Below the pieces are notes generated by a model, which searched no databases, was not told the origin of the DNA, and worked only from the letters and a program-made list of their open reading frames with translations. Positions 1,767 through 57,539 of a stretch of 64,000 nucleotides of DNA are shown in pieces. Made by a program: the position numbers and the translations under genes. The first letter of the stretch is position 1. Each line of letters begins with the position of its first letter. The stretch covers positions 113 through 64,112 of the forward strand of contig CAYJQY010000006.1 in assembly GCA_964372905.1 (NCBI GenBank). The letters run 5' to 3'. Source of the DNA: an uncultured Candidatus Saccharibacteria bacterium (GTDB lineage: Bacteria; Patescibacteriota; Doudnabacteria; UBA920).

Positions 1767-4700
1767 TTATTTTATCTCGACTTGCGCAGCTGGGCTGATA
1801 TTGAGAACATTCAGGTCCCTGGTCGACTGAATCAATGCCGGATTGGCGCCAAAGTCACCTTTGCTGACCACGCGCGCAAAATAGTTAATAGTGAGTTTGG
1901 AACAATTGGGCGGCGGAAAATAACGGTAGACATTAAAGTAGAGGGCATTATTTTCAATGACCGAAGGATACCACGAAGCATTGCAGTCATTCGGCAAGCT
2001 TAAACCATAGGAGTACGGCTGGGTGATAGGCTTAAGGCCGGAAGGCAGAAAGTCAACGACCTGGTATTCGCCCTCCAAAGCCTGACTGCTGATTTGCGGA
2101 GTTAACACCACACGAACGATGTCGCCGTCACGGAATGAGGTGGTAGCTTTACCATCAACCATATAAGCCCGGCTAACGCTAATGGTGCCATCTTTCTTCA
2201 AAGCCGCGGGGTCCTGACCCCGTTCAAAGTAACTGGTCACGGCAACCTGGCCGGACACTCCGGAAAAACGCAGGCGCGCCAAGTCATCCAAGGACAATGT
2301 CCGCCGGAAGCTTTGGCCGTTTTTCAGTTCGAGAGTTTCAGTTTTATCCCCGATGGTATAACTGAACTTGGCCGATTCAGCGCTGGTGCGGGAAAGTTCC
2401 GAACGCAAGATAAGTACCCGTTCCAAAACATCAAGATCGCGCTCGGGATAATGATTCTGGAGATACTCCCACATCCCAGCGGTATCATCTTTGATGCCGA
2501 GCAAAGAACTCAATTCAGCCATGCTCGCGGTGAGCTTAACTTTTTTGGTGATATCGGTCTCCAAATCCAAGGATTTTTCCGGGCCGTGCGAATCCAGATG
2601 TCCTTGAAGCGCATCAAAATAAATCATGCGGGCATTTTCCAGGTCGCCAAATTTGGCAAAAGCCAAAGCAACATAAAGTTTGTCCGTTGGCGTCAAATCT
2701 TTACTTTGGGCAAAAACTTTTAACAACACTAGGGCCGAAGCCTTGAGACTGGCCAAGCCATAATAGGCCAAGGCCTGCCGGTGAATATCGGTTTTTTCAT
2801 CCTTCAAAGACATTCTAAAATATTCGATAACAGATTGGCGGTACACCATGTCCGGCACCAAGTCAGCAACCTTAGCTGACAATTCTAATTCCGGATCAGA
2901 ATAGCTAAACAAAGCGATACCCCCGCTCCCGGTCTGGTAAGCACCGAGGTCAAGACTTTCAGGTTTGTCTTCGCCAAAGTAGTCTACGAGCAACTGACGG
3001 GCGGCGAAACTGGCCGCTTGCTGGTCAGAGCGAACCCCGCCGTAGGCCAGATTTCGCGTGGCAGCATAGTACCGGCCGCGGCCAGCATCGCTAAACAACA
3101 GCTCGGTAAACCCGTTTTGGTTGCCGGCTATTCCGGTGAGCGACGAAGCCACAGTATACACTTGGCTTTCCCCTGTCTTAAAGTAACTTTTGGCCACATG
3201 GATAGTCCGGACAATGCCGTCGCGCAAATCGCCTTGGCTCGCGGCAATGTGCAGTGCGTGGTCGCCTTCCGGAAGCGCGCCCAAAGGAATGTTCCATTCA
3301 TTATCGCTAGTCCGTTGTTTGGCATTGAGTTTCAAAGTGTCGCTAGTCATACTGTAATCTTTAGCTGCGCCGCTTAGGCCCGTGCCGAAAACTCGCACGC
3401 GTAAGGTCGGACGGTCGCCGACCAGATATTGCTGGTTCATGGTCGCTTCAACAAAGAACGGCAAAGTTGTTTTCACCAGCTTCTCGGCATCCCCAGCCTT
3501 AAGGTTGTCGGGATCAAAAGCCTGGGCAGTCACACGCCAGGAAGTTATATTGTCAGGGCTGGTAAAGCTCAAATGAGCCTTGCCGTTTTCATCGGTTTGC
3601 AGAATTTCGTAGGTTGCGGTATCAAGGAAATTACTGCGCTCGCTGCTGCCGCCTTTTTCTGCATTGTGGACATAGAAATTGTCCGCAAAATAAGTATGAT
3701 AATTACCAACCACAATATTGTAGACTTCGGTGTTGGGCTGAATCACGGTTTCAAGCGAAGTAATGGGCACGCTCGCGCCCGAGGCCAAGAGCAGCGTGTC
3801 GCCTTCGTGCACGTTGCCCGCCGGCTTCCACGAACCGTTGCTGAATATGGTGTGTTCCGGAGTCACTCGCAATTTTTGGTTGATGATGAGGTAATCGCCA
3901 ACCATATGGCTGGAAATTCCCTGGACCACGGCTTTGGCCAGCGTGCCGTTGCGGTCAGACTTGCGCGTCACGATCTCGTCACCGACGCGGATTTGTTCAA
4001 TCGGCTTGCTGCGGCCATTGGCCATAAGTATTTGCGTGCCGGCCAGGAAACAGCCGCCCTTTTCCGCGCCACCGAACTGATTAGGCGTGCCGAGAAGACC
4101 AAAATAGGAAGCCCCGGTCAAAGGCAAAACGTAAATATTCTGGTATAGCCTCGGCAAAATTGACTCCCGATAATCGTAGGGCAAAACATGGAAAATGGCT
4201 TCGTCTACCGCCGCCACGTTAAGCTCGGAACGGACTCCGCGTTTATCTTTATCGGTTACGGCAAAATCAATATTGATCTGCTCGCCCGGCTTGTAAGCAT
4301 CTTTGTCCGATTTGATGTCAATATTCAGCTTCCTATCCTCTTCTTTATACGAAGCATAAATGCTATTGGTCTCAACAAAACCGTAGGGCCCAAGCACTAC
4401 AGCTCGGTACTGGACATTGGGCAGAAAATCCTGGCCGAATGTTTCGCTGAAAGCCAAATCTTGCTGGATGGAAATTCTCGAAATGTTGTTTTGGTAGCGA
4501 TAGAACAGGACATTGGCCCCCGGCTGGAGCTTGCCCTCCTGGACTCCGAGGGTTAAATTGACCTGCTCGCCGACACTGTAATCTTTACTGTAAATCTCAT
4601 CCTTAGTGCCGCCGACAATGCGCAAGTCTACGGCAAACGGATTATTAGGATCATAGGTTTGATAGCCGGCAAAGACTCCAAAACCGTAAGCGCTAAATTC

Positions 4701-7280
4701 AACCTCCAGCTTTCTGCCCTCTCGGTCCTGGCCGTTAATATTCAGCAGGTAATAACCGTTTTCAAGTTTGGGTAAATCTTTCTGGAAGATCCATTCTCCA
4801 TTATTGTCCGTGGTGCCGCTGAAAGAATCAAAACCATCGCGGTGCTCCTCATACCGGTAAAGTTTATACACAATTTTATTGATAGGGTCGTAAGCATCTC
4901 CAGTCTCAACTGGGGTATAGTAGACTTTGATAATTTTGGCCGACAGTGGGTGGCCAGAAACTGGTGGGCCGAAAGAATCGTAACTGTAAAAGTCGCTTGG
5001 GGCAGCAGAATTTTGTTGCAAGACAATATCATTGAGCTTGGCCTTAAATGTGTGCTGGGTGCCCTGCTGTTTGTCTTGGTAGCCCTGGAGATACATATGC
5101 GGACCGAACACTAAAACCGAAGCCTCGGCGTAAATTTCTCCCTCTTCGGCAGCTTGTGGCGCAAAACTCAACATCAATGATCGCGGATAAAAAATATTAG
5201 AACCTTCAATGTATTCCGGAGTTAGCGCGACCGAAGCCTCGCCGTTTTGATTCAGCTTGACCTGGCCGGAAATATCAGAATTCCAGTAACCTCGGTAGTC
5301 CAAAGTCATGTTGGGAACAGGCGTCCCATCAAAAAAAGCAGCTTTAACTTTAAATTCTACGGGCTGTCCGGCAAAAATCTGATCTTTAGAAACAGTAGTA
5401 GTGAGCTGATAAGCCGGCTTGGTATAAGTTTGGACTTCAATGTTGGTGTTAGCCACGACATCAGTGCCATTGAGCACGACCAACGAATAAGTTTGCGGTC
5501 TTAGTCCCTGAAAGTGCAATTCGCCCTGGAAGGTATCAAAATTTGAGACCAAGACATCAGCAGAAACAAGAGGCTTGTTATCTGGCCTTAAAGTATCGCC
5601 TGTATAATAATAGCCTTCAAACAGGCCGACCGTAAGTTTTTTCTCACGCAGATCTTGGGTTCTGCCTTTAGCCACGCCCCAAATTTTTACCGTATCGCTG
5701 ACCTGATAAACCGGCCGGTCAACGGAAATGAATTTCCAATACTGGTCGCCTGTGGGCAAAGTCCCATACCAGCCATCTATAACTTTCACATAAACGGGCT
5801 GACTGGCCGGGATGTCCAGCTTAAAGAAGCCGGGGGTGGTCGGCCCTGATTCATCTTGCAGGACTTGAGGCGGGCTGAACTCGACCAAGCCTTGCGCGTT
5901 GGTGATGCCTAAGCCTCCGCTACTTCCCGCGCCCACAAAAGAAGCTTTGGCTTCCGCAATCGGCGCTTTTTTGCTGAAGTCATACAGCCAGATAAAACCT
6001 TTGTCATGGGTTAAGGAAAAATAATGGGCCGAGTCCGTTATCTGCAGCCACATTTGCCGCCGATTTTGGCCGAACGTAACATCGATAACATAGTATCCTG
6101 GGGCTAGCGCCTGCGGCAGTTCAAAAAAATTTTGGTAATTGACCGTTTGTATGTTGGGCTTGAAGCTGGCTACTTTATTGGCCTTGCCGGGATCAAACAA
6201 AGTGCCGCCGTGGCGATAAAAATTGGTCCAGCCCCACTCCCAGTTGCGGCTATTTTGATAAGAAGTGATAAAATCATCGCCGTTGGCAAGGCGGTAGACA
6301 TCGGCCAAGCTAATTTCTTTGCCCGGGTCAAAGTTATAATAGTAGACAGACAGGGCCGGCTTATTGCTCGGCAGGAATTCGGCAAAATCATTCTGGAAAT
6401 CAAAATACGAAGTATTGCTGCCCTCGTTGCTGCTGGTCTCAAAACTAAAACTAAAATCCTTGTCCAGCTTATCCTCGCTTCCGCTAATCCCTAAACCCTT
6501 GCGGACCGTAACGGTGTAGACCTTGCTTTCTGCAAAACCGCTCGGTACGAAGACCAAGGTATCGTCATGAACTTCAAAACGGCCGGAAACCCTGGGATTT
6601 ATTTCAAAATAATTTTCCGGGTTGGTCAGACCTTCGCGGTTAAATGTAAGTTCGACCCCGGAATTTATCGGCACGAAAGTTCCCTTATTGGCAGGAAAAG
6701 TTTTTATAATCTGAAAAGGCGCTTTAATCTGAAAAGCCCAAGAATATTCCCGATCAGCATAATCGGGATTAGTAATCGCAACTGTGTAGATGGAATCGCC
6801 GGCCAGCGGTTGCTGGGGCGTTAATTCGTAGGCGGAACTAGTGGCGGGAGCATTGGCCGCGAAGACTTCTTTGATAAAAATACCAATGAGATTAAGGCCG
6901 GCAACTTTCTTGACCGAAAAATCCGCTTCAGGACTAAATTTAACAATTTTCTTTATGGCCTGGGTCGACAGCGGCTGGTCGCTTCTTAATGTGAACGATG
7001 TATTCGGCTGCGTTCCAGCCGCATCTTCCTGCTTGGCACTTAATGTAAATTTGGCCGGGTGCGCCGGTTTGGCAAAATAAGTTCGGTAAACAAACCAACC
7101 CGCTACGAGCACAATTACTCCCAGCACAACGCCGGCAATGGCTTTTTTATTTTTGAAATGTGAGGCGAGAGGGCCTCGTGACGCATTCGCAGGCACTGGT
7201 TGTTGCGGAGCCGGGGTCATGCCTGGCGATAGAGGAGCTTGGGGGGCGAAGCTGTCTTCCAACGACTCAATTTCGTTCAT
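1767..7280 (-). CDS. giant (1837 aa) membrane-anchored surface protein with embedded Hint/BIL domain; possible thioester-less alpha-2-macroglobulin-like architecture
   Basis: Single N-terminal TM helix after a short cytoplasmic N-terminus, then a long beta-rich ectodomain with MG-like segments. A C-terminal receptor-binding-like segment (EYQVVDFLPSGLKP) is present and no CxEQ thioester motif is seen. The Hint domain begins CFLAGTQIL and ends FYVHN. Confidence 0.55.
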   Translation of the reverse strand: MNEIESLEDSFAPQAPLSPGMTPAPQQPVPANASRGPLASHFKNKKAIAGVVLGVIVLVAGWFVYRTYFAKPAHPAKFTLSAKQEDAAGTQPNTSFTLRSDQPLSTQAIKKIVKFSPEADFSVKKVAGLNLIGIFIKEVFAANAPATSSAYELTPQQPLAGDSIYTVAITNPDYADREYSWAFQIKAPFQIIKTFPANKGTFVPINSGVELTFNREGLTNPENYFEINPRVSGRFEVHDDTLVFVPSGFAESKVYTVTVRKGLGISGSEDKLDKDFSFSFETSSNEGSNTSYFDFQNDFAEFLPSNKPALSVYYYNFDPGKEISLADVYRLANGDDFITSYQNSRNWEWGWTNFYRHGGTLFDPGKANKVASFKPNIQTVNYQNFFELPQALAPGYYVIDVTFGQNRRQMWLQITDSAHYFSLTHDKGFIWLYDFSKKAPIAEAKASFVGAGSSGGLGITNAQGLVEFSPPQVLQDESGPTTPGFFKLDIPASQPVYVKVIDGWYGTLPTGDQYWKFISVDRPVYQVSDTVKIWGVAKGRTQDLREKKLTVGLFEGYYYTGDTLRPDNKPLVSADVLVSNFDTFQGELHFQGLRPQTYSLVVLNGTDVVANTNIEVQTYTKPAYQLTTTVSKDQIFAGQPVEFKVKAAFFDGTPVPNMTLDYRGYWNSDISGQVKLNQNGEASVALTPEYIEGSNIFYPRSLMLSFAPQAAEEGEIYAEASVLVFGPHMYLQGYQDKQQGTQHTFKAKLNDIVLQQNSAAPSDFYSYDSFGPPVSGHPLSAKIIKVYYTPVETGDAYDPINKIVYKLYRYEEHRDGFDSFSGTTDNNGEWIFQKDLPKLENGYYLLNINGQDREGRKLEVEFSAYGFGVFAGYQTYDPNNPFAVDLRIVGGTKDEIYSKDYSVGEQVNLTLGVQEGKLQPGANVLFYRYQNNISRISIQQDLAFSETFGQDFLPNVQYRAVVLGPYGFVETNSIYASYKEEDRKLNIDIKSDKDAYKPGEQINIDFAVTDKDKRGVRSELNVAAVDEAIFHVLPYDYRESILPRLYQNIYVLPLTGASYFGLLGTPNQFGGAEKGGCFLAGTQILMANGRSKPIEQIRVGDEIVTRKSDRNGTLAKAVVQGISSHMVGDYLIINQKLRVTPEHTIFSNGSWKPAGNVHEGDTLLLASGASVPITSLETVIQPNTEVYNIVVGNYHTYFADNFYVHNAEKGGSSERSNFLDTATYEILQTDENGKAHLSFTSPDNITSWRVTAQAFDPDNLKAGDAEKLVKTTLPFFVEATMNQQYLVGDRPTLRVRVFGTGLSGAAKDYSMTSDTLKLNAKQRTSDNEWNIPLGALPEGDHALHIAASQGDLRDGIVRTIHVAKSYFKTGESQVYTVASSLTGIAGNQNGFTELLFSDAGRGRYYAATRNLAYGGVRSDQQAASFAARQLLVDYFGEDKPESLDLGAYQTGSGGIALFSYSDPELELSAKVADLVPDMVYRQSVIEYFRMSLKDEKTDIHRQALAYYGLASLKASALVLLKVFAQSKDLTPTDKLYVALAFAKFGDLENARMIYFDALQGHLDSHGPEKSLDLETDITKKVKLTASMAELSSLLGIKDDTAGMWEYLQNHYPERDLDVLERVLILRSELSRTSAESAKFSYTIGDKTETLELKNGQSFRRTLSLDDLARLRFSGVSGQVAVTSYFERGQDPAALKKDGTISVSRAYMVDGKATTSFRDGDIVRVVLTPQISSQALEGEYQVVDFLPSGLKPITQPYSYGLSLPNDCNASWYPSVIENNALYFNVYRYFPPPNCSKLTINYFARVVSKGDFGANPALIQSTRDLNVLNISPAAQVEIK
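3663..4052 (-). other. Hint / bacterial intein-like (BIL) domain inside the giant protein
   Basis: Translation reads GGAEKGG|CFLAGTQILMANG...TPEHTIFS...NIVVGNYHTYFADNFYVHN|AEKGG. An N-terminal Cys and a terminal His-Asn are present, with no homing-endonuclease insert (~130 aa). The +1 residue is Ala, which matches a BIL domain better than a splicing intein. Confidence 0.75.
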
Positions 7281-36090: not shown

Positions 36091-37389
36091 TTATTGCTTA
36101 AGGCTGACCCGAGCTCCTAATTGGGCCATGATAGCCGGAAATGTGGGAAATGTCTTATCAACTGCTTCGGCCGTATCTATGCTAGTCTGTCCGCTGGCCA
36201 GCAGGCCGGCCAGAGTTAATGCCATGATGGTGCGATGATCATTGTGGCCATGCACGGCCGTGCCACGAAGTCTGCTATGGGAAACGGTTAAACGATCAGT
36301 ATCCCCATTAATCTTGGCGCCCAGCGCAGACAAGCCTTGCTCCATGCTCTGAATACGGTCAGTTTCTTTGCTCCGCACATGGGCAATATTTACCAATTCA
36401 GTTGCGCCTTCGGCATAAGTGCCAATGACCGCCAGCGTCGGAACCAGATCAGGAATGTCGCTGCAGTCAATTCGCCGACCTTGCAGCGGCGCTCCCCCAT
36501 TGATTACCAATTCATCTTCATTAACTTGAATATCGACGCCCATATCCCGCAAAATTGGAATTAAGCGTTTGTCGCCCTGACTGTCATTCATGTCCAGGCC
36601 GCGCACGGTAACTGATCCGGGAACCATGACCGCGGCAGCGATGATATATGATGCAGAGGAAAAATCGCCAGGAATTGATTTGCTGAAACTGCGATAGCGC
36701 TGTCCTCCGGTAATCTCAAAGACATCTTTCCCCTGCTCTCGGTTCTGTTTATACTGAACACCCAAATCATCCAAATAACGGCAAGTCATTTCCACATACG
36801 GTCGCTCCTGAAGATTCTGCACGATAATTTTTGAATCCTGGAGCGCAAGCGGCAAAGACAACAACAACGCGGAAAGATATTGGGAATTAGAGCCGTCAAC
36901 CGTTGTTTCACCGCCCTTGAGCGCGCCGCGCACCGAAACCGGCAGCGTACCCGAACCGTTGATAGATTCAATTTCCATACCCAAATCAGCGAGCGACTTA
37001 AGCAGCGGCTCAACAGGCCTTTGACGCATTTGTTCGTCGCAATCTAAAATAACGACTTTTTCGTTGTTCTTCCGCAAGCCCAGCATCGGCAGCAAAAAAT
37101 TCGTCGTAATGCCGGAATTACCCGTCGCCACCCGGTCCGCTGTCGGTGACAGAGGCACGCCGCTGCTTTCAACCATAATATTTTTATCGTCAGAAAAAGA
37201 AATACGCGCCCCAAGCGCCTGGCAGGCGGCAATGGCGGAGCGCGTATCTTCACAATCCAAGGCGTTACTAATGCGCGATGTTCCGACGGCGAGAGTCGCC
37301 AAAATCAGCGCGCGGATAGTATGCGATTTGGATGCGGGAATGGTTGCAATTCCCTCTAACTTTTGAATTTTTTGGCTGATAAGTTTCAT
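36091..37389 (-). CDS. aroA: 3-phosphoshikimate 1-carboxyvinyltransferase (EPSP synthase)
   Basis: 432 aa with an N-terminal IPASKSHTIRALILA motif and the EPSPS two-domain inside-out alpha/beta fold. Confidence 0.92.
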   Translation of the reverse strand: MKLISQKIQKLEGIATIPASKSHTIRALILATLAVGTSRISNALDCEDTRSAIAACQALGARISFSDDKNIMVESSGVPLSPTADRVATGNSGITTNFLLPMLGLRKNNEKVVILDCDEQMRQRPVEPLLKSLADLGMEIESINGSGTLPVSVRGALKGGETTVDGSNSQYLSALLLSLPLALQDSKIIVQNLQERPYVEMTCRYLDDLGVQYKQNREQGKDVFEITGGQRYRSFSKSIPGDFSSASYIIAAAVMVPGSVTVRGLDMNDSQGDKRLIPILRDMGVDIQVNEDELVINGGAPLQGRRIDCSDIPDLVPTLAVIGTYAEGATELVNIAHVRSKETDRIQSMEQGLSALGAKINGDTDRLTVSHSRLRGTAVHGHNDHRTIMALTLAGLLASGQTSIDTAEAVDKTFPTFPAIMAQLGARVSLKQ

Positions 37390-37400
37390 TGGATTATGTA

Positions 37401-37430
37401 AAATAAAAAAGGGCCTCGCTTCCGAGGTCC
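37401..37430 (-). terminator. candidate attenuator terminator upstream of aroA (hairpin + U-tract)
   Basis: Minus strand ggaccucg-gaag-cgaggccc followed by uuuuuuauuuu. A 5-bp GC stem is extended by 2 bp after an A·C mismatch. It lies 12-40 nt upstream of the aroA start codon. Confidence 0.45.
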
Positions 37431-37458
37431 TTACTGTGTATAACTTTAAATCAGAGTT

Positions 37459-37557
37459 CTACATAGCAACAAACACCTCGGCACGCGGGGTAAAGGAGAA
37501 ATACCAGAAATTGCTGATTGTGCGGGCGATTGAACTCATATAACGACAGTATAGCAT
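37459..37557 (-). CDS. candidate aro-operon leader peptide rich in Phe/Trp/Tyr codons
   Basis: The minus-strand ORF ATG CTA TAC TGT CGT TAT ATG AGT TCA ATC GCC CGC ACA ATC AGC AAT TTC TGG TAT TTC TCC TTT ACC CCG CGT GCC GAG GTG TTT GTT GCT ATG TAG encodes MLYCRYMSSIARTISNFWYFSFTPRAEVFVAM, with a second in-frame ATG at 37539. Its stop lies ~30 nt before the hairpin. Confidence 0.4.
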   Translation of the reverse strand: MLYCRYMSSIARTISNFWYFSFTPRAEVFVAM

Positions 37558-37575
37558 AGATAAAATTGCTGTCAA
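37548..37575 (-). promoter_or_regulatory. sigma70-like promoter for the aro operon / leader (TTGACA-16-TATACT)
   Basis: Minus-strand reading TTGACAgcaattttatctatgcTATACT. It shares the aatttTATGCTATAnTGT module seen at 9580 and 59266. Confidence 0.45.
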
Positions 37576-37714
37576 CTTTGATATGTTTGGCACACCCTTT
37601 TGTTTAAATGTGACCTAACGTGGCGAACTGAAATAAAAATACCGCCGCTGAGCTGTGGGGGATAAAAATCTATTTGACAAAATTGTCGGCATAGAATATA
37701 GTTCAGATATTCTT

Positions 37715-37804
37715 ATGTTCAATTCCTCCGAAAAACGCGCTGTTTCCCTGTCCTGGTGGTGGACTCTGCCCTCTCCGCAAAGTCCGCGTTTTTCCCGTGC
37801 ATAA
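37715..37804 (+). CDS. candidate trp leader peptide with three consecutive Trp codons
   Basis: ATG TTC AAT TCC TCC GAA AAA CGC GCT GTT TCC CTG TCC TGG TGG TGG ACT CTG CCC TCT CCG CAA AGT CCG CGT TTT TCC CGT GCA TAA encodes MFNSSEKRAVSLSWWWTLPSPQSPRFSRA. Its stop lies 25 nt before a strong terminator that abuts trpE. Confidence 0.55.
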   Translation: MFNSSEKRAVSLSWWWTLPSPQSPRFSRA

Positions 37805-37829
37805 GCTAGTCGTTTAACACAGCTTTCCA

Positions 37830-37871
37830 CGCCTTCCGGACCGTTGCGGAAGGCGTTTTTTATTTTGCTTT
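37830..37871 (+). terminator. rho-independent terminator (trp attenuator) immediately upstream of trpE
   Basis: A perfect 9-bp stem pairs cgccttccg with cggaaggcg around the loop gaccgttg, followed by ttttttattttgcttt. The trpE ATG lies at 37883. Confidence 0.75.
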
Positions 37872-37882
37872 ATTCTTTCTTT

Positions 37883-39238
37883 ATGAAAAATTTACCTCTC
37901 CTCACCCTTACATCCAAGCCCGCGTTCATCAGATTCGATACTAAACTCGACTTTTTTGACCTGTTCAAAAAAATTGAAGCGCAGTATGAAATTTGCTTCA
38001 TCCTTGAATCGCTCATCGAAAATGCCGAAGGCCGCTATTCCCTCATTGGATTCGCGCCGGATACAATCATCCGCGCCCGCGGAAACAACCTGTTCATCGG
38101 CTCAAAAAAATATGCCATCAGCAACCCCTACGCAGCTCTGCGGCAAATCATGCCCATTCAGCCATCGACTCAACATTATACTGGCGGCTTGGTCGGATAC
38201 ATGAGCTATGAAGCGGCTAACTACTTTGAGCCAGCCCTAAAACTGAAAACCCACCCCGACTTCGACCCGATCTGCTTCGGCTTTTACACTGACGGCCTTA
38301 TGCTCGATAAATTCACTGATGAAATTTCCTATTTTTACCATAACAAAAACCGTCTGACCAAAATTAAAAAATTGCTAGCTGCAACGGCAAAGTCGGATAA
38401 AAAAACCGTAGTCAAAAAAAATAACCAAAGCCTGTCCAAAGCTAGGCATCGCCGCCAGGTCGAAAAAGTTTTGCGGGAGATCCGGGCGGGCAATGCTTTT
38501 CAGTGCGAAGTCGGTATCCGCACCAGCTACTCTATCACCGGTCCGACCATCCCCCTCTACGAAACCCTGCGCCAAGTCAGCCCTGCGCCGTACATGTACT
38601 ATATAAAATTCGGAGATAAAAAATTAATCGGCTCAAGCCCCGAACTATTATTCAGTATCAACGGCAAAGAAATGGCGACATTCCCCCTGGCCGGTACCGT
38701 AAAAAGGGGGCAAACCGCCAGCCAGGACAAAAATAATGCCCGAGACTTGCTCCACGATCCCAAAGAACGAGCCGAACACGCCATGTTAGTTGACCTCCAC
38801 CGCAATGACCTGGGGCGGGTGGCCAAATTCGGCACAGTCAACCTGCGACGCTTCATGGACATCAAACAGTTCAGCCATGTTCAACACCTATCCAGTGAAA
38901 TCACCGGAATTATTAAAAACGGGGCAGATATGTTCTCCGGCCTCGCCAGTTGTTTCCCGGCGGGGACCTTGACCGGTGCGCCAAAAATAGAAGTTATGAA
39001 AATTATTGACCGCAACGAGCACAGCGGACGCGGGCCCTACGGGGGCGCAGCCGGCTATTTTGGCTTTAACGGCAATTGCGCCTTTGCTATTCCCATCCGC
39101 AGCCTGTTCATTTCCGGATCAAAAGGTTATATCCAAGCTTCCGGCGGCATTGTCTATGATTCCACGCCCGAACGTGAATACCAAGAAATCCAAAATAAAC
39201 TGGCCGGATTAAACCTCATGCTTGATCAATTTAGATAA
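37883..39238 (+). CDS. trpE: anthranilate synthase component I
   Basis: A chorismate-binding C-terminal domain (GGAAGYFGFNG, ...G.VYDS.PE.E..E) and an N-terminal LES Trp-feedback motif are present. It is followed by trpG and trpD. The ORF track starts at TTG 37844, but ATG 37883 is preferred. Confidence 0.88.
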   Translation: MKNLPLLTLTSKPAFIRFDTKLDFFDLFKKIEAQYEICFILESLIENAEGRYSLIGFAPDTIIRARGNNLFIGSKKYAISNPYAALRQIMPIQPSTQHYTGGLVGYMSYEAANYFEPALKLKTHPDFDPICFGFYTDGLMLDKFTDEISYFYHNKNRLTKIKKLLAATAKSDKKTVVKKNNQSLSKARHRRQVEKVLREIRAGNAFQCEVGIRTSYSITGPTIPLYETLRQVSPAPYMYYIKFGDKKLIGSSPELLFSINGKEMATFPLAGTVKRGQTASQDKNNARDLLHDPKERAEHAMLVDLHRNDLGRVAKFGTVNLRRFMDIKQFSHVQHLSSEITGIIKNGADMFSGLASCFPAGTLTGAPKIEVMKIIDRNEHSGRGPYGGAAGYFGFNGNCAFAIPIRSLFISGSKGYIQASGGIVYDSTPEREYQEIQNKLAGLNLMLDQFR

Positions 39239-49962: not shown

Positions 49963-51723
49963 CTATTCTCTCGTGACTCTTAATATCTCTTCGATAGTGG
50001 TGACTCCCCGGACGGCCTTAATGAAGCCATCTTGCCACATGAGGATCGTGCCTTTGGCTTCGGCCAAGTCTTGGATTTCCTGGCTGGCCGCGCGTTTAAT
50101 GATCATTTCCCCTATTTCCGACGTAACCTCGAGAATTTCATGGACGCCCAGGCGTCCGCGGTATCCAGTATGGTTGCATTTGTCGCAGCCCTTGCCTTTA
50201 TAAAATTTCAGATCCTCGAATTTGCCGGTTTTGGCGGGTATGACTTTTTCGCGCTGAAGAACTTTCATCAATTTGTCGAGGTCGAACTGTTTGCGCAACG
50301 TGGCGGCGGTGGCTTCATCCACGTCCATCTTCTCTTTGCAATCCAGACAAATAATGCGCACCAGGCGCTGGCCCATAACCGAGTTGATGGTGGAGGCAAT
50401 GAGGTACGGCTCTTCGCCAATGTCAATTAAGCGCGGCAAGGCGCCGGCCGCGCTGTTGGTATGCAAGGTTGAGAGTACAATATGCCCGGTCATAGCCGCG
50501 TGCATGGCTTCCTCGGCCGTTTCCCGGTCGCGGATTTCTCCGATCATAATAATATTCGGATCCTGACGCAGCAGGGAGCGCAAGCCCAGAGCAAACGTCA
50601 AGCCGATTTTAGGGTTAACCTGCATCTGGTTAGTGCCGGGGATGTGGTATTCCACCGGGTCTTCGATCGTAGAAATATTTACGTTCTTGGTATTCAAAAT
50701 AGTCAAGATGGCATAAAGCGTCGTGGACTTGCCGCTGCCGGTCGGTCCGGTTATCAAAATCATACCATGCGGTTTGTGAATGCTTCGGCTGACCAAATCC
50801 AATTGCTGCGGCAAAAATCCCAGCTGCTCCAGGGTCAAGGCCTTGCTCGATTCATCAAGTAAACGCATTACCACTTTTTCGCCGTCGAACACGGGAATAG
50901 TGGACACGCGCAAACTGTACTTGTAGCCCTCTTTTTCCAGCTTGAACCGGCCGTCCTGCGGCAGACGGTGCTCATCAATTTTTAAATCCGCCAGAACTTT
51001 TATGCGCGCTACCAACGCAGCATGAATAACTTTGGGCAAAGTCATAACATCGTGGAGCACGCCGTCAATGCGGTAGCGCACGGTCACGGCGTTTTCTTGC
51101 GGCTCAATGTGAATATCCGAGGCCTTTTCTATGACCGCGTATTCGAGAAGCGTGTCCACCACCTGAATGACCGGAATTTCCTCGGCCATTTTTTTGAGCT
51201 CTTCGGCCAGGCCGGCGGCGCTCACGGCGCCAGAACCGCCCGCTTCCGTAGTCTTGCCCTCATCCACCAAGTGCTGAATTTCCCCTTCCAAATTGGAATG
51301 ATATTTTGACAGGCCGAAATCCAAACTCTGCTTGCCGATAAGATAGGCCTTGATGGACAACCCGGTCTTCTTTTTCATGAACTCCTTGGTCTGGATGTCA
51401 GTGGGGTCAACCATGGCCACGGACAGCTCGTTCTTGCCTTTGGCGAAACTGATGATCTTGTGGCGGTGGGCAATGGGCTCGGGCACCAAATTCAGGACCT
51501 CCGGCGCGATATTTTGGTCGCGCAGGTCAATCACCGGCACGCCCAGGGCCTGGCTCTTCAATTCCAGCAACGCTTTCTCATCGATAATTTTTTGGTCGAT
51601 AAGAAAGTCATCCCATTCCATGGGCTTATTCAAATGTTTAGCTTCTGCTTCCAGCTCTTTCAGCCGATCCGCGGTAACGATTTTTTTTTCTTTGAGGAGC
51701 TGATTCAGCTCGGTGGTGATCAT
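49963..51723 (-). CDS. pilB: type IV pilus assembly ATPase PilB (GspE family)
   Basis: Walker A GPTGSGKST, Asp box, Walker B and His box are present, with a tetracysteine zinc site (CLDCKEK...CDKCNHTGY) and an N-terminal GSPII domain. Confidence 0.92.
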   Translation of the reverse strand: MITTELNQLLKEKKIVTADRLKELEAEAKHLNKPMEWDDFLIDQKIIDEKALLELKSQALGVPVIDLRDQNIAPEVLNLVPEPIAHRHKIISFAKGKNELSVAMVDPTDIQTKEFMKKKTGLSIKAYLIGKQSLDFGLSKYHSNLEGEIQHLVDEGKTTEAGGSGAVSAAGLAEELKKMAEEIPVIQVVDTLLEYAVIEKASDIHIEPQENAVTVRYRIDGVLHDVMTLPKVIHAALVARIKVLADLKIDEHRLPQDGRFKLEKEGYKYSLRVSTIPVFDGEKVVMRLLDESSKALTLEQLGFLPQQLDLVSRSIHKPHGMILITGPTGSGKSTTLYAILTILNTKNVNISTIEDPVEYHIPGTNQMQVNPKIGLTFALGLRSLLRQDPNIIMIGEIRDRETAEEAMHAAMTGHIVLSTLHTNSAAGALPRLIDIGEEPYLIASTINSVMGQRLVRIICLDCKEKMDVDEATAATLRKQFDLDKLMKVLQREKVIPAKTGKFEDLKFYKGKGCDKCNHTGYRGRLGVHEILEVTSEIGEMIIKRAASQEIQDLAEAKGTILMWQDGFIKAVRGVTTIEEILRVTRE

Positions 51724-52004: not shown

Positions 52005-53510
52005 CTAGGGATTGAGTTGGCCGGCTACTCGGGAAGTCATTACTCCTTGTTGAGCTATGGTCTTGTCAGCGGTGTTGGCCGCTACAACATCGGACAAACT
52101 ATAGCCCCAGGAGGTAAAGACCGCCATGGAAGGAATGCCCATCAAACTGGATTGGCCAACTAATTGAATAGTGCCGCTATTGTTAACCAGGACTCCCGGA
52201 CGGTGCGCCTCGGTTGAGCTGGCTATGTTGGAGGTCTTGCTTAAGAATGACGAGTCGCCGTACTGGGCGCGACTAAAGGAAAAGCCCAGACCTTTGAACA
52301 CGGCCTCACTGGTAAAGGACGCCTTCTGGCCGCCGGTTATAAGAGCGCATTCGCCTTTTACGTCCGTACCCTTAGCTGCTGTCGCGCAGAACAGACTGCC
52401 GTCGCGCGGGGCGATGAAAGCTCCCTGCGGCAGGGCCAAGTCACCGGTGTTGGCAATGACCACCTGGCTCCAGGAAAGGAAACCGTAGGACAAGAACGCT
52501 CCGGCGGAAGTAAAGGCGCGGCGCATGTTGTCGCCGGTAATAAACCAGACCGTGCCGTCGGAGGTCTTGATCACGCTTCCGGCGCTATGCGCACCGCCTG
52601 TTGGCGGGGAGGCAACTCCGGGTTTAACCGCTAAAGCATAAACACTGAAGTGAGTCAAATTGACCGTAATGGTATTATTGACTGTGTCCACTACCACGGG
52701 CAAGGTTTCCCACTGGGCAGTGGCGCTATTGTAAAACAACACCGTCAGATTGCTTTCGTTGGTACCCGGAGGCAATTGGGATTCGTTATAGCTGAAGGTA
52801 ACGGTTACGGCGCTGTTGAAGTTGGTCACCGCAGTGCCGTTGCTGGAAGCAGAAAGAGTAAAGGGCATACCAACCAGGGCAGTGGCCCCCGCAGTGCTAA
52901 TACCCACCGTAATGCCGGCATTGGCTAACGTGGTCGTGCTGACGTTTACTGTGGTATTGCTGCCCACCGCGCCAGGAGGCACAGAGACTTGCACACTGGG
53001 CGTGCCAGTGTCGCTGGGAGTGTAAGTAGTGGTTCCTCCGGCAGAAGGCGTGGCTGTTACCGACCCCGTAGTGGTAGAAGGCCCAGACGGAGCAGATCCG
53101 CCGCCACCGCCACCGCCACCGCCACTGAAACAGGCAGTGGATGTCGGGGTCAGAGTGATATTTTCCACGGAAGAACCAGAGGCAATAACTATAGTTTCCA
53201 CTCTCGATCCGCTACAACTCGTAGTAATGGTAGCTTGATTAGTTTGACCAGAGATACTCATATGTCTGCTTGCCGAAGTCAGCGTGAACGTCGTATCGGC
53301 CGGCAAAGTTACAACTATACTATCGTCATTAACAACGAGAGAGTCGGCCTCCGAACCAGCTATAATGGTTAGGTCAATATCTGGCGCAGTCAAGGCGACC
53401 GTGGTGTCAGCGTCGTAAGTAAGGTCCTGCGCAAAGGCGATACTGGCCCCGGCTAAGCTTATGCCCAATCCCAGACCTACCGCAACTAGCCGCCTAAGAT
53501 ATTTTTTCAT
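52005..53510 (-). CDS. secreted Ser/Thr/Gly-rich surface protein with C-terminal ~170-aa FTSAGAF-repeat domain
   Basis: Signal peptide MKKYLRRLVAVGLGLGISLAGASIAFA. A poly-Gly run (GGGGGGGGG) and T/S-rich beta regions are present. The C-terminal domain is shared with the 55299..57539 protein. Confidence 0.6.
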   Translation of the reverse strand: MKKYLRRLVAVGLGLGISLAGASIAFAQDLTYDADTTVALTAPDIDLTIIAGSEADSLVVNDDSIVVTLPADTTFTLTSASRHMSISGQTNQATITTSCSGSRVETIVIASGSSVENITLTPTSTACFSGGGGGGGGGSAPSGPSTTTGSVTATPSAGGTTTYTPSDTGTPSVQVSVPPGAVGSNTTVNVSTTTLANAGITVGISTAGATALVGMPFTLSASSNGTAVTNFNSAVTVTFSYNESQLPPGTNESNLTVLFYNSATAQWETLPVVVDTVNNTITVNLTHFSVYALAVKPGVASPPTGGAHSAGSVIKTSDGTVWFITGDNMRRAFTSAGAFLSYGFLSWSQVVIANTGDLALPQGAFIAPRDGSLFCATAAKGTDVKGECALITGGQKASFTSEAVFKGLGFSFSRAQYGDSSFLSKTSNIASSTEAHRPGVLVNNSGTIQLVGQSSLMGIPSMAVFTSWGYSLSDVVAANTADKTIAQQGVMTSRVAGQLNP

Positions 53511-53547
53511 AAGGCATAATAGTTAATTGTTAAAGGATTGGTTAAGC

Positions 53548-54987
53548 TTAGGGGGCTACTGATGCCATTGCCGTCCAGGTATTTGCGGCGGTGCAAGCAT
53601 ATATCGTCGAGTCTGCGTCGCCATCGGTCCTTAGGAACATGCTTCCCTGCGCACAATCAGAGGTCGGGGCACCAGTACCAGTAGAAATAGTAACGCCGCT
53701 AGACAGCCGGATATCAGCCGTGCCGTAAGAGACTGCTTGGTAACTGTCTATTGCTCCGCTGAACAAATCCAAGCCGTAATCGAACTTAGAGGCCGCGGTA
53801 GAGTTCAAGTACCGAACTCCATATGCAGCACCGGGGGTCATAACCGCTGCTGGATCACCTCCAAGCACAGCCAAAATGGCCGCGTCTGCAGTACCATTTT
53901 CGTCTTCGCCGACTTCGCCGATAACGCCGGCCGCAGGGTAATCACTGGCGTTGGTGTCAACACTGTATTTGCCGATAACGCCGGCGATGTCGCTGACGCT
54001 GGTGGGATCAACAGTGCCCATAACATTTCCCATGACCGCACCGCCATAACTGCTACCTATGAAGTCACTAAGTGTCGCGTCCGCTTCGACTGATTGCTGA
54101 GACTCGCCGTCACTGGCACCAAATGTCGGGCTTAAAACAATCTTTGCGCCGCTAGTGGCGCCGACATCAGCCGCTGCGCCGCCAATGGTAATTGCTCCAT
54201 TAGTGGCGTTGGAGATCGTCTCGCCGTTTTGCAGGCGAATATCCGCTGTGTCAAAACTGACGGCCTTGAAATCACCGACAGCGGCGTGGAAGAGATCAAT
54301 ACCATAGGTAAATTTGCTAGTATCGAGTGTGTTCAGATACTGCACCCCATAAGCAGCATTGGCGGTAACCAAGTAGCTGGGATCGCCGCCGTCCAAGACA
54401 GCCATGAAAGCGGCATCAGCCACGCCGTCAGTTTCTGCATCAACTCCAATGGTGGCAACAACTCCGGCTTTCGGGCCAGTCAAATCGTCAGCAGTGGTCA
54501 CAGAGTAAGCGCCGATCACGCCGGCGTGGTAGCCGGCAACGGTATTGGTAAGATCATCGCCGTGGAAGTGACCCATTACAGCGGCGTGGAAAGAACTCGT
54601 GCCGCCGGCCGCGCCTTCGTATGTAAGATCACTGGCCACGGGCTGGAAAGAACCTGTGGCGGCAGTGGCTCTGGTTACCTCGTAAGTAAGACTGCCCGCG
54701 CCGCCGTTAATGGTGACGCCGCCTGTTGTAAAATCTGCGCTGCCGAGGGTCAAGCTGCCTGTAGTCAGCGCCTCGCCAATGGCGATACTGCCAGTAGTAT
54801 TCGCGCCGCCAACGGTCAGGGCTGATATGGCTGCTGAATTAACGGTCAGCGCGGCGTCAGAAACCACAGAAGTTGCGCTGAACGTCAGCGCTGCATAGGC
54901 TGCCGAGGCGGCCACAAAGAAAAACGCCAGCGACAGCGCAAACACCGAGGAAGCACGGTAACCAGCTTGAAAAGAGAATATTTTCAT
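53548..54987 (-). CDS. secreted protein with internally duplicated ~190-aa domain
   Basis: N-terminal hydrophobic signal. Two homologous halves (...AGVIGAYSV...GVQYLNTLDTSKFTYGIDLF...ADIRLQNGETIS, then ...AGVIGKYSV...GVRYLNSTAASKFDYGLDLF...ADIRLSSGVTIS). Gly/Ala/Thr-rich. Confidence 0.55.
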   Translation of the reverse strand: MKIFSFQAGYRASSVFALSLAFFFVAASAAYAALTFSATSVVSDAALTVNSAAISALTVGGANTTGSIAIGEALTTGSLTLGSADFTTGGVTINGGAGSLTYEVTRATAATGSFQPVASDLTYEGAAGGTSSFHAAVMGHFHGDDLTNTVAGYHAGVIGAYSVTTADDLTGPKAGVVATIGVDAETDGVADAAFMAVLDGGDPSYLVTANAAYGVQYLNTLDTSKFTYGIDLFHAAVGDFKAVSFDTADIRLQNGETISNATNGAITIGGAAADVGATSGAKIVLSPTFGASDGESQQSVEADATLSDFIGSSYGGAVMGNVMGTVDPTSVSDIAGVIGKYSVDTNASDYPAAGVIGEVGEDENGTADAAILAVLGGDPAAVMTPGAAYGVRYLNSTAASKFDYGLDLFSGAIDSYQAVSYGTADIRLSSGVTISTGTGAPTSDCAQGSMFLRTDGDADSTIYACTAANTWTAMASVAP

Positions 54988-55298: not shown

Positions 55299-57539
55299 TT
55301 AGAAGACATTCAAGAACAGATCGTCTGTCTTGAATTCATCCAAGTTGAAGATGTAGTTGTTGTCGTTAGTGTCATCGATTTCAGTACCCCAGTTGATGGA
55401 CTCTATTTCTACGTTAACCAAGCCATCATCCCCTTCGACGATCACCGTTAGAGTGAACGATCGAGTGGTATCTTCGTCTACCTCAAAGACGTCCGCGTTG
55501 TCTTCGCTGTCAGACGTTGATGATGTCAAGGAACACGTAACTAGGGCCGCGCTGACGTCGGATACCTCAAATTCAATTCCTTCGCCTGCGTCGCCAATGG
55601 TGTCTTCGTCATCGCACGAACTGTCGATGCGCATGTCGTCATCAAAGGCGGTTGCCTTGAAGTTAACCTTGAAGGTGCCAACATCGGTTGAACCAACAGT
55701 TGCCGGATCACCAGGGGTAGTTACGGATGCGCTCGCGCTAACGAACGAGACCATAATACCTGCTTCGTAGAGAGCATGGAAATCAGGAACAGCAGTACCG
55801 GTGCGGTCGCCGGCAGCAAGATCCTCGCCCTCTTCGTCCTCAACGTCAATGGCGGCGCGCTCAACCGCGGTAACCTGCGCGCGAACGGTGTCGCCATCAA
55901 CAATACCGTCAGCAATTGACTGGAGGTCTGAAGTCACTTGGAACTCATGCTTGCCTGTATCGAGAGTCAAATCGAGGTCGTCGAAGATGATTGTCTCATC
56001 AGTTCCGGCCCCGGCCGGCACGTTTTCCGAGCCTACTTCATCACCGTCAACAATGAGGTGAACAGCGGAGATCGCGTCCTCCAGGTCCACCCCGACAGAA
56101 TCATAGTTAACCGGGAAGTCATCGATGGTTAAGTCAGACTGGCCTTTTACTTCCAAGATACCCGAGAGCAGCACTTCGTCATCGGTGTCGTCAACGTCAT
56201 CGATGTCAATAACGTGTGCTTCGTTAATGGCGTCGTCATCTTCATTGAGTGAGAGTTTCAGCTCAACGTCGGCTGAAGTCGCGAACGTCTCAAATGAGAA
56301 GGTTCGGAGAGCCGGCAGGTCGCCGGTTGCATCATCGGTCGTTGAAGCTCCCTGCGCATCGACAAAGCGAAGCGACTCAATCGTTACGTCCCAGGTATCA
56401 CCTTCATCGTCAGAGTCAAGATTGTTTATGCCAGAGACTGCAACGTAAAGATTCGCGGTAGCGTCTGACATGATCTTAGGACAGCCGGTGAGAGAGATTG
56501 TCCTGTCGTGGGCGTTGTCGTCGTTGAACTTATCCGCGTCAACGCGGGCAACCTCGGTGCTGCCAAGCCAGAGGGACACATCGGTAGCGAATTCATCAAA
56601 GTTGTCGTTCACGGCTGTATTCAGATCAAAGTTCACCCGGACAGCGGTTAAACGGATATCTGAACCGTCGTCTGCCTCGACTTCAAGGCCGGCGACTTTC
56701 ACATCGTCTTCACCCTCTCCCACTTCCTCGTTGCTGAGACTGGAGATCAGCTGGGCATCCTCGAGCGAACCGGCGCCGCCCGCGAGGGTGCAGTCGCCTG
56801 CAACCGGAGGAGGCGTGGTCGTGGTCAAGCTAGGCACTAACTGGCCCGCCATGCGGGAAGCGAGTACGCCGACTTGGGTAAGCGCGTTGTCAGCCGCGTT
56901 GGCCGGAACTGTGTTGTTGAAGGACATGCCCCAAGAGTTGAAGGTCGCAACGTCGGGGATGCCGATCAAACCGGAGTTGCCGACGAAGTAAACGGTACCG
57001 GCCTTATTGACCAAGCTGCCAGCAGGGTGCTGCATGGAAGCGCTGTCAATGTTAGAACCGGAAGCCATCCAGGAAACATCGGCGAAAGAACCATTGGCAA
57101 AATTAAAGCCAAGGCCGGTGAAGACCGAAGCAGAGGTAAAGCCGCGTCGCTGTACGCCGCCGCTACCGTCTAAGGCCATGAAATAACCCGTGCCTCTATC
57201 AGCGCCGCGATCCGAGAAGATGATAGTTCCCGGAGCGGGCGGGATGAAGGCGGGGGTGCACTGCGCGAGAGCTAAATCATCCGCGTTCGCATCAACAACT
57301 CCGGCAAAAGAATTGAAGCCGTAGCTCAAGAAGGCGCCGGCGGAAGTGTAGGCGGCTCGGCAGGGTCCGGGCAGAATCGACCAGATTGTACCGCTGGCGT
57401 TGACGTTCGTGCCAACAGCGTGAGCCGCGGCAAAAGCCGTGGTTGGCGCAAAGGCAAGAGCGGAAACAGCCATGGCAATGGACGATGCCACCGCAAAGAT
57501 TTTCCTTACTAAAGGAGAATTACTCATTATTAACTCCAT
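55299..57539 (-). CDS. secreted highly acidic (Asp-rich) surface protein with N-terminal FTSAGAF-repeat domain
   Basis: The signal peptide is followed by a ~170-aa domain homologous to the C-terminus of the 52005..53510 protein (AAYTSAGAFLSYGFNSF...RRGFTSASVFTGLGFNF...VATFNSWGMSF). Long D/E-rich beta segments follow (DIDDVDDTDDE...). Confidence 0.6.
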   Translation of the reverse strand: MELIMSNSPLVRKIFAVASSIAMAVSALAFAPTTAFAAAHAVGTNVNASGTIWSILPGPCRAAYTSAGAFLSYGFNSFAGVVDANADDLALAQCTPAFIPPAPGTIIFSDRGADRGTGYFMALDGSGGVQRRGFTSASVFTGLGFNFANGSFADVSWMASGSNIDSASMQHPAGSLVNKAGTVYFVGNSGLIGIPDVATFNSWGMSFNNTVPANAADNALTQVGVLASRMAGQLVPSLTTTTPPPVAGDCTLAGGAGSLEDAQLISSLSNEEVGEGEDDVKVAGLEVEADDGSDIRLTAVRVNFDLNTAVNDNFDEFATDVSLWLGSTEVARVDADKFNDDNAHDRTISLTGCPKIMSDATANLYVAVSGINNLDSDDEGDTWDVTIESLRFVDAQGASTTDDATGDLPALRTFSFETFATSADVELKLSLNEDDDAINEAHVIDIDDVDDTDDEVLLSGILEVKGQSDLTIDDFPVNYDSVGVDLEDAISAVHLIVDGDEVGSENVPAGAGTDETIIFDDLDLTLDTGKHEFQVTSDLQSIADGIVDGDTVRAQVTAVERAAIDVEDEEGEDLAAGDRTGTAVPDFHALYEAGIMVSFVSASASVTTPGDPATVGSTDVGTFKVNFKATAFDDDMRIDSSCDDEDTIGDAGEGIEFEVSDVSAALVTCSLTSSTSDSEDNADVFEVDEDTTRSFTLTVIVEGDDGLVNVEIESINWGTEIDDTNDNNYIFNLDEFKTDDLFLNVF

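Follow-up and report, generated by a model that had tools for sequence, protein, structure and literature searches.

The 64,000-nucleotide stretch of DNA analysed here (the window; contig CAYJQY010000006.1 of assembly GCA_964372905.1), from an uncultured Patescibacteria bacterium of the Doudnabacteria lineage, holds two divergent operons for aromatic amino acid biosynthesis, and the region between them, with a candidate transcription attenuator in front of each operon, is the subject of this study. The intergenic region spans 493 bp (37390..37882), rather than the 494 bp given in a preliminary description of the locus, with the aroA start codon (37389, minus strand) on one side and the trpE ATG (37883, plus strand) on the other. 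According to Pfam, the minus-strand operon comprises 11 genes, which encode EPSP synthase (aroA), shikimate kinase (aroK), type II dehydroquinase (aroQ), shikimate dehydrogenase (aroE), DAHP synthase, dehydroquinate synthase (aroB), chorismate synthase (aroC), the pheA and tyrA products, a CM_2 chorismate mutase and a class I/II aminotransferase. The plus-strand operon consists of seven genes (trpE, G, D, C, B, A and F), and both gene content and orientation agree with the preliminary description. The PNPase of the organism is 75-80% identical to proteins assigned to Patescibacteria or Doudnabacteria, the group to which it belongs.

A promoter scan located two putative sigma-70-type promoters in the region, facing outward, each ahead of one operon and each matching the consensus at 11 of 12 positions. 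The promoter on the trp side (TTGACA-17-TATAGT; 37674..37702, plus strand) predicts a transcription start at approximately 37707-37710, while the one on the aro side (TTGACA-16-TATACT with an extended -10 TG; 37548..37575, minus strand) predicts a start at approximately 37541. The TTGACA-17-TAnnnT layout is also found in the trp loci of two relatives (L130 and L147), and the aro promoter of a third (L142) has the same layout as that of the window, with GTTATATG after the -10 box. A short open reading frame (ORF) begins immediately downstream of each promoter, with its ATG 12 nt past the -10 box in the case of the trp leader (37715), leaving an implied 5′ untranslated region (UTR) of about 5-8 nt, and 8 nt past it in the case of the aro leader (37539). 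Neither leader is preceded by a Shine-Dalgarno (SD) motif, and the same is true of aroA and trpE. Among the 34 ORFs of 200 aa or more in the window, a single one has an SD-like 4-mer at positions -20..-4, versus 13% at random positions, a pattern that suggests genome-wide SD-independent initiation in this bacterium. The lack of an SD motif in the leaders is therefore normal for the organism and no argument against their translation. With the distance from the -10 box to the start codon as the sole guide (12 nt in the trp leader and 8 nt in the aro leader, compared to 7-14 nt in relatives), both leaders are probably translated from effectively leaderless, SD-less transcripts. SD-poor gene starts of the window include 37389 and 36081 on the minus strand and 37883 and 39244 on the plus strand. 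As a separate observation, the organism is present in the Logan runs ERR4904390, ERR4904391 and ERR3478686, and one of its contigs there (L076, ERR4904391) has its end at window position 37707, 5 nt past the trp -10 box and near the predicted transcription start, which could be a coincidence or could mean that the sequencing run was RNA-derived.

The trp leader ORF consists of 29 codons from an ATG start (MFNSSEKRAVSLSWWWTLPSPQSPRFSRA; 37715..37804, plus strand, with its stop at 37802-04) and contains, in frame, three successive Trp codons, UGG UGG UGG (37754..37762), which are the proposed stall site. Both the ORF and its codon run had been pointed out previously, and this is the single in-frame occurrence of Trp-Trp-Trp on the plus strand of the window; the 9-mer TGGTGGTGG has two occurrences in the window versus 0.25 expected. 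Between the ORF and trpE lies an intrinsic terminator (ACGCCUUCCG with CGGAAGGCGU, -19.2 kcal/mol, followed by UUUUUUAUUUU; 37829..37868), which ends 15 nt before the trpE ATG. Its stem, in which 37829-38 pairs perfectly with 37847-56 over 10 bp, begins 24 nt past the ORF and leads into a T-run, so that the hairpin and U-tract of the preliminary description stand, with its figures of 9 bp and 25 nt corrected. Upstream of the terminator, two segments that can pair with each other lie within the ORF. Segment 1 (37730..37769) has three pairing stretches, GAAAAACGC(G) (37730-39), GGACU (37761-65) and UGC (37767-69), the first of which shows a further complementarity, over 37731-38, to the end of the terminator and the U-tract (37853-60). 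Segment 2 (UCCGCAAAGUCCGCGUUUUUCCCGUG; 37774..37799) holds a CAAAGUCC box common to L130 and L147 and has two alternative partners, segment 1 and segment 3 (CACG, CGGAC and UUGCGGA; 37828..37850). Segment 3 is the 3′ side of an antiterminator and overlaps the 5′ arm, the loop and the first 3′-arm bases of the terminator.

Folding of the trp leader as free RNA gave a structure of -44.3 to -44.5 kcal/mol (z = -2.7), which none of 200 shuffles equalled, consisting of a long hairpin between segments 1 and 2 (37730-38/37786-94, 37761-65/37781-85 and 37767-69/37777-79) together with the terminator. When a ribosome was placed on the first or second Trp codon, so that pairing was confined to the RNA on its 3′ side, the antiterminator (37774-80/37844-50, 37782-86/37837-41 and 37796-99/37828-31) was instead the best structure, and with the ribosome at the leader stop codon the terminator alone formed. 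The antiterminator and terminator states were calculated at -28.0 and -25.3 kcal/mol, respectively, with the ribosome on the first Trp codon, at -25.3 kcal/mol each on the second, and at -23.5 and -25.3 kcal/mol on the third. Folding thus bears out the ribosome-mediated trp attenuator switch of the preliminary description; the classical geometry is not strictly followed, given a leader ATG 12 nt past the -10 box and the lack of an SD site. In the mechanism we propose, transcription would begin a few bases before the SD-less ATG, and a ribosome would read the 29-codon leader while RNA polymerase advances. Scarce Trp-tRNA would stall the ribosome on UGG UGG UGG (37754-62), masking segment 1 and freeing segment 2 (37774-99), which could then pair with segment 3 (37828-50), so that the terminator would not form and trpEGDCBAF would be transcribed. 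With plentiful Trp-tRNA, the ribosome would reach the stop codon (37802-04) and cover segment 2, allowing the 10-bp terminator to form, and in an untranslated leader segments 1 and 2 would pair with each other and the terminator would form again.

Two other lineages were found to carry trp leaders of this kind. In L130-133, whose TrpE is 61% identical to that of the window, TTGACA-17-TATCAT is followed after 7 nt by an ATG and the peptide MKKETIKLACFGWGWAL, and in L147-149 (TrpE 59% identical) TTGACA-17-TATAAT is followed after 8 nt by an ATG and the peptide MGNTLNINYDFFANVQWLWSSSRHKVRFELSA, which includes VQWLWSS. Both are leaders of the W-x-W type with the same switch as the window, and an invariant CAAAGTCC box in segment 2 is common to all three, as is AAGGyGUUUUUU as the 3′ arm of the terminator. 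With a stalled ribosome, the antiterminator was the clear minimum-free-energy structure of L130 and L147 (-17 to -21 versus approximately -10.5 kcal/mol), while the terminator formed without a ribosome or with a ribosome at the stop codon. Two sequences being too few for a covariance model, L130 and L147 were combined into a sequence profile, whose best match in the window was 37754..37864 (E 0.0097).

On the minus strand, the aro leader ORF consists of 26 codons and a stop (MSSIARTISNFWYFSFTPRAEVFVAM; 37459..37539). Its aromatic codons, UUC UGG UAU UUC UCC UUU (37492..37509), spell Phe-Trp-Tyr-Phe-Ser-Phe, the regulatory codons previously proposed, and the two other elements of the preliminary description were likewise located. 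The first is the hairpin with a U6 tract (37432..37405) upstream of aroA, an intrinsic terminator (37401..37432) in which AAGG-A-CCUCG pairs with CGAGG-C-CCUU across a GAAG loop (-12.6 kcal/mol), followed by a U-run that ends about 15 nt before the aroA ATG (37389). The second is the 5′ arm of an antiterminator (37475..37490), where CCGAGGU (37481-75), in the codons for Ala-Glu-Val, pairs with the terminator 5′ arm ACCUCGG (37428-22) in the minimum-free-energy fold of the free RNA; upstream of CCGAGGU, CC and CGC extend the helix by pairing with the 3′ arm of the terminator. The same pairing was also best with a ribosome stalled on F17 to S21, and in constrained folds the terminator formed solely with the ribosome on F22 or further, up to the stop codon (37461-59). 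On both strands, then, terminator and antiterminator are mutually exclusive structures, with the choice between them set by the position of the ribosome, as the preliminary description had foreseen. According to these folds, an untranslated aro leader would be read through by default, while an untranslated trp leader would terminate. The proposed mechanism is that a ribosome reads Phe-Trp-Tyr-Phe-Ser-Phe in a leaderless 26-codon ORF, in which CCGAGGU would by default be paired with ACCUCGG, and only a ribosome that has passed the aromatic codons and stands at the end of the ORF would cover CCGAGGU and let the terminator form. A lack of any one of the three charged aromatic tRNAs should consequently raise transcription of the 11-gene shikimate/Phe/Tyr operon.

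The aro leader was compared among eight distinct aroA upstream regions, namely that of the window and those of seven other Patescibacteria (L134, L135, L136, L138, L142, L146 and L152); the gene order aroA-aroK-aroQ-aroE-DAHPS-aroB is kept in Patescibacteria. All seven of the other regions contain a promoter, an ATG 8-14 nt past the -10 box and a short aromatic-rich ORF, as well as the CCGAGG/CCUCGG antiterminator and the terminator, so that the leader design of the preliminary description recurs in every distinct Patescibacteria aroA upstream region fetched. The encoded peptides are MNIHSQAFYFYFFGTS (L134), MKIRSSSQFYFYFWKTS (L135), MNTNTRAFYFYFWKTS (L136), MNMHTQTFYFYWKAS (L138), MNIHTQAFYFFYWKTF (L146), MDLYIKSQSFYFYFWASSKVGAFVAM (L142; 26 aa, ending in FVAM, the same C-terminus as in the window) and MIMQCKQYSFWFIFTPSTSEDIVGIV (L152; with F-T-P as in the window). 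The aromatic blocks matching FWYFSF of the window are FYFYFW, FYFYFF, FYFYW, FYFFYW and YSFWFIF. An ORF with at least five aromatic residues out of six is present in seven of the eight regions, the eighth, L152, having four of six (YSFWFIF), while in about 0.97 Mb of fetched DNA such ORFs (ATG-started, 8-45 codons) have a background frequency of roughly one for every 130 kb of strand. The aromatic codons vary synonymously (UUU/UUC and UAU/UAC) with the residues and reading frame kept, and the position of the stop codon relative to the antiterminator arm is conserved.

The paired segments of these leaders also vary together. The leaders of the window and six relatives show 68% column identity when aligned, and when the seven aligned leaders were folded with the ribosome at various codons, the helix between segments 2 and 3 (CCGAGG/CCUCGG) remained until the stop codon was reached, at which point the terminator formed. 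In most relatives an outer helix between segments 1 and 4 (GGAAAACCUC with GAGGUUUUUU) stands alongside the 2:3 helix, and RNAalifold also found an alternative state with 1:2 (CCUC with GAGG) and 3:4 pairing. For counting of base pairs, the segments were extracted by hand in register after a check of their order and spacing, as plain MAFFT shifts L135 and L146 by one base within the switch segments. The 6-bp core of the antiterminator was paired in 47 of 48 cells, with three compensatory pairs (CG to UA, and GC to AU twice) and a covariation score of 0.254, which was reached by 4 of 500 shuffles. The terminator was 87.5% paired, with one compensatory pair, and the 1:2 and 1:4 helices approximately 90%. 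In L146 all four segments are altered in concert (ACCUU, AAGG, ACCUU and AAGGU), and in L138 a C-to-U change in segment 3 is answered by a G-to-A change in segment 2. Finally, a covariance model (R1) built from the seven relatives, with the window left out, gave a sole significant match in the window, at 37401..37539 of the minus strand (38.1 bits, E 1.5e-4, model positions 1-127 of 127), which marks the full extent of the aro leader RNA and starts exactly at AUG 37539. The arrangement of the neighbouring operon is variable: in L135, L138, L142 and L146 the aro leader directly follows the trp operon (trpB, trpA) and points the same way, in place of the divergent orientation of the window. The aro attenuator goes with aroA whatever lies upstream.

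Both sides of the region thus combine a leader ORF enriched in the relevant codons, an intrinsic terminator before the first gene and an exclusive antiterminator that depends on the ribosome, the two trp states being close in energy. On the aro side, the codon run is conserved and the helices covary among eight leaders, with three compensatory pairs; support on the trp side is weaker and comes from two relatives that share the design and one sequence box. The sequence features, the alternative pairings and the way these are conserved and covary among relatives were observed directly, and it is very likely that the region consists of two independent, back-to-back ribosome-mediated transcription attenuators, each with its own sigma-70-type promoter and firing outward. 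The transcription starts, the translation of the leaders, the stalling of the ribosome and the regulatory outcome are predictions from sequence.

Several observations weigh against this interpretation or limit its strength. No close relative of the window was found, with the next-closest TrpE 61% and the next-closest AroA 56% identical (both from the Patescibacteria/Doudnabacteria group), no TrpE between 61% and 100% identity in genome and metagenome scans and a search of 5.8 billion proteins, and a region identical to that of the window in three other contigs of the same strain (L076, L077 and L129); for this reason its own helices are without fine-scale covariation. On the aro side, the full leader of the window folds no better than shuffles (z = -0.8), its terminator is modest, at -12.6 kcal/mol with one A-C mismatch, it is without the clean segment 1 (ACCUC) found in most relatives, and the covariation count is that of eight sequences with hand-extracted segments. 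The aro switch thus appears convincing through the comparative data, with folding of the window alone being weak. As for the trp side, homology of the window leader to L130 and L147 is borderline and these relatives number two. The antiterminator and terminator are nearly isoenergetic, being equal at the second Trp codon and with the terminator better by about 2 kcal/mol at the third, and addition of the four 3′ bases 37865-68 makes the terminator state favoured at all three stall positions. As these states are thermodynamically balanced, the trp switch must rely on the antiterminator forming first during transcription, as in Escherichia coli.

A different mode of control of the trp operon is suggested by the relatives themselves, since trpE is preceded by a T-box-like leader in most of the Patescibacteria relatives fetched. 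At least 14 of the fetched trpE loci carry a AAGGUGGnACCGCG box and a terminator (L001 2776-2955 and L150 1127-1343; also L004, L005, L017, L078, L080-L084, L087, L088 and L104), and the Rfam T-box model scores 33.5 bits (E 6e-6) on L001 and 42.8 bits (E 2e-8) on L150, so far under its gathering score of 93 bits that standard annotation would miss these leaders. The GGUGGUGGAC of the window is superficially like GGUGGUACC, and its trp leader could be a T-box riboswitch, perhaps degenerate, that senses uncharged tRNA-Trp directly, with the small ORF being incidental. However, when 37300-38000 was searched against Rfam permissively, with E values up to 10, no match to the T-box model (RF00230) was returned, as opposed to the 33-43 bits of L001 and L150 as positive controls, and a T-box was rejected for this leader. 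In addition, the transcript from start to terminator, at about 155 nt, is too short for a Stem I and an antiterminator, and the UGG run, placed 67 nt 5′ of the terminator, is outside any antiterminator bulge. The UGG codons are, moreover, in frame in an ATG-started ORF with a correctly placed stop, a peptide-type design shared by L130 and L147, which altogether leaves the T-box explanation highly improbable. With respect to the aro leader, the preliminary description had placed its start at ATG 37557, giving an ORF of 32 codons, which would need a transcript starting further upstream from another promoter. The frame is indeed open from 37557, and L142 also has an in-frame upstream extension, with a GTG start. 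Nevertheless, ATG 37539 is the likelier start, because 37557 lies inside the -10 hexamer of the sole strong promoter match on the strand. Besides, in L134, L135, L136 and L146 and, for ATG starts, in L152, the frame offers no earlier start than the ATG past the -10 box; the covariance model alignment begins at AUG 37539, and the "YC(R)YM" likeness to L142 is accounted for by conserved promoter and spacer DNA. Translation from 37557 therefore seems unlikely, and the regulatory logic would be the same with either start.

A broader objection to attenuation is that the small ORFs arose by chance and that the hairpins are constitutive terminators, stability elements or protein sites, with regulation, if any, exerted by a repressor (for example a TrpR/YerC-like protein) on the divergent promoters. 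Approximately 100 bp separate the two -35 boxes, which would leave room for operators, genes of the PF01371 Trp_repressor family adjoin trp or aro loci in L134 and L147, and the stability of the aro leader of the window does not exceed that of shuffles. Set against this, chance would have to account for aromatic-rich ORFs in all eight distinct aroA upstream regions at the background frequency given above, for an aro reading frame, stop position and synonymous codon variation that are conserved, and for a Trp-Trp-Trp run that is unique on its strand. Control of the TrpR type as the sole regulator was rejected, as tblastn identified no TrpR/YerC homologue in the window and no notable operator-like palindrome lies between the promoters. 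A repressor could add to the attenuators without replacing them, and we regard it as quite unlikely that chance and a repressor explain the region. Control by TRAP was likewise set aside, as no (G/U)AG repeats were seen by eye, with no formal search made.

No Rfam model recognises either of the two attenuators. At gathering thresholds, scans of the window and 30 related loci identified tRNAs only, and a permissive scan of 37300-38000 (E up to 10) added nothing beyond terminator look-alikes that stayed below threshold (FopS, Phe_leader and C0719). Trp_leader (RF00513) had no match even at E values up to 10, and Phe_leader (RF01859) reached 18 bits, compared to a gathering score of 55, by covering the terminator hairpin alone, so that the aro element of the window is not a member of that family.

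Leader-peptide attenuation is itself a textbook mechanism, and the two leaders can be compared with several of its known forms. The trp leader shares with the E. coli trpL attenuator (RF00513; Yanofsky 1981, as presented in PMC4007540 and PMC11802643) a short ORF with consecutive Trp codons, four segments that pair as 1:2 and 3:4 or as 2:3, and a terminator just before trpE. As in trpL, the untranslated leader would terminate, and the antiterminator, being weaker than or about equal to the terminator, must form first. The window leader differs from trpL, on the other hand, in that it has no sequence similarity or Rfam match to it, contains three Trp codons instead of two, and has 11 codons between the Trp run and the stop, so that segment 2 lies inside the ORF. 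It is also without an SD site, with a predicted 5′ UTR of about 5-8 nt, and its segment 1 is complementary to the terminator 3′ arm and U-tract as well. The aro switch departs from trpL in that it would default to read-through when untranslated, and in that its sensor mixes Phe, Tyr and Trp codons for the common pathway and the Phe and Tyr branches. E. coli pheL (RF01859; PMC3082878) is likewise rich in aromatic codons and followed by a terminator, but it contains Phe codons only and controls pheA alone.

A parallel in design for the aro leader is aroR of Corynebacterium glutamicum, a Phe-Tyr-Phe leader that regulates the aroF operon by ribosome stalling, with Tyr reportedly having no effect (Neshat et al. 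2014, as presented in PMC11802643). Both are mixed-aromatic leader peptides over genes of the common shikimate pathway. They belong, however, to different phyla and were compared by design, not by sequence, and the Patescibacteria block also includes Trp (FWYFSF in the window, FYFYFW in relatives) and, in the window, stands before an operon of 11 genes, aroA being the first, that also encodes the enzymes of the Phe and Tyr branches. Start codons at or 1-2 nt from the transcription start, with no SD site, are known for the 14 predicted leaderless leader peptides of Deinococcus deserti, one of which precedes trpEGD (PMC4007540), and for the leaderless, Cys-rich small-ORF attenuators of mycobacteria (bioRxiv 10.1101/834739). 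In those organisms, again of other phyla, the starts were mapped by differential RNA sequencing (dRNA-seq), whereas those of the window are deduced from promoter spacing, and the window trp leader may have a 5′ UTR of 5-8 nt. With these cases and that of aroR, a leaderless start and a mixed-aromatic sensor are not without precedent. Within the phylum, the trp leader has the operon and the output (terminator versus antiterminator) in common with the RF00230-like T-boxes of Patescibacteria trpE, which sense by direct binding of tRNA and involve no leader peptide.

The mechanism being known, the two elements add new cases to it, and probably represent two uncatalogued RNA families in a phylum with unusual amino acid biosynthesis; no description of leader-peptide attenuation in Patescibacteria was found in the literature searched. 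We are somewhat inclined to extend this to the aromatic-synthesizing lineages of Patescibacteria (Candidate Phyla Radiation, CPR) in general. These would carry an aro leader that senses Phe, Tyr and Trp by means of a symmetrical four-segment switch (ACCUC / GAGG / ACCUC / GAGGU) with read-through by default, and a trp leader that replaces the T-box of sister lineages. Both would be leaderless and SD-less, with 70S ribosomes loading at the 5′ end as it emerges from RNA polymerase, which would amount to a minimal coupling of transcription and translation in a phylum whose translation machinery is reduced. The pheA product is a prephenate dehydratase of 191 aa with a PDT domain alone, the tyrA product a prephenate dehydrogenase with a PDH_N domain alone, and a Pfam scan identified no ACT domain in either. 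This domain content agrees with the preliminary description, whose link from the missing ACT domains to regulation at the RNA level is plausible. In an organism whose PheA and TyrA are free of ACT-domain feedback, the aro element would offer a means of tuning the whole shikimate/Phe/Tyr pathway, namely through one peptide that reads three aromatic tRNA pools. Control of one operon by T-boxes and by leader peptides within one phylum offers a clean case of regulatory replacement, and the apparent leaderless, SD-less sensors would be simple loci for the study of transcription-translation coupling in CPR bacteria. The alignments and the model could, moreover, seed two RNA families and improve the annotation of CPR genomes, where these ORFs go uncalled.

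Some further observations were made on leaders upstream of trpE and on other parts of the window. An unclassified metagenome-assembled genome (L035) carries the trp leader MKKNITSNLKWWQAFPNR and a terminator. In L147, approximately 180 nt (1062-1243) separate the terminator of the trp attenuator from the trpE start codon, and the PF01371 Trp_repressor-family gene upstream is divergent. In Marinomonas/Neptunomonas (L009, L013, L020, L072 etc.), two distinct small W-x-W ORFs lie 5′ of trpE, at -193..-163 and -73..-37; one, MNWCWRSV with an ATG start, resembles the usual gammaproteobacterial trpL, and the other, with a TTG start, reads ..NNWVWVLPL. Elsewhere in the window, an alpha-2-macroglobulin-like protein of 1837 aa is encoded at 1767..7280 on the minus strand (domains A2M, A2M_BRD and bMG10), with a Hint or pretoxin-HINT-like insert at about residues 1076-1200 that may be an intein. 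Large ORFs (1831, 501, 479 and 746 aa) with no Pfam match at E <= 1e-5 lie at 20317..25812, 52005..54987 and 55299..57539, all on the minus strand, near a gene for a type IV pilus ATPase (49963..51723).

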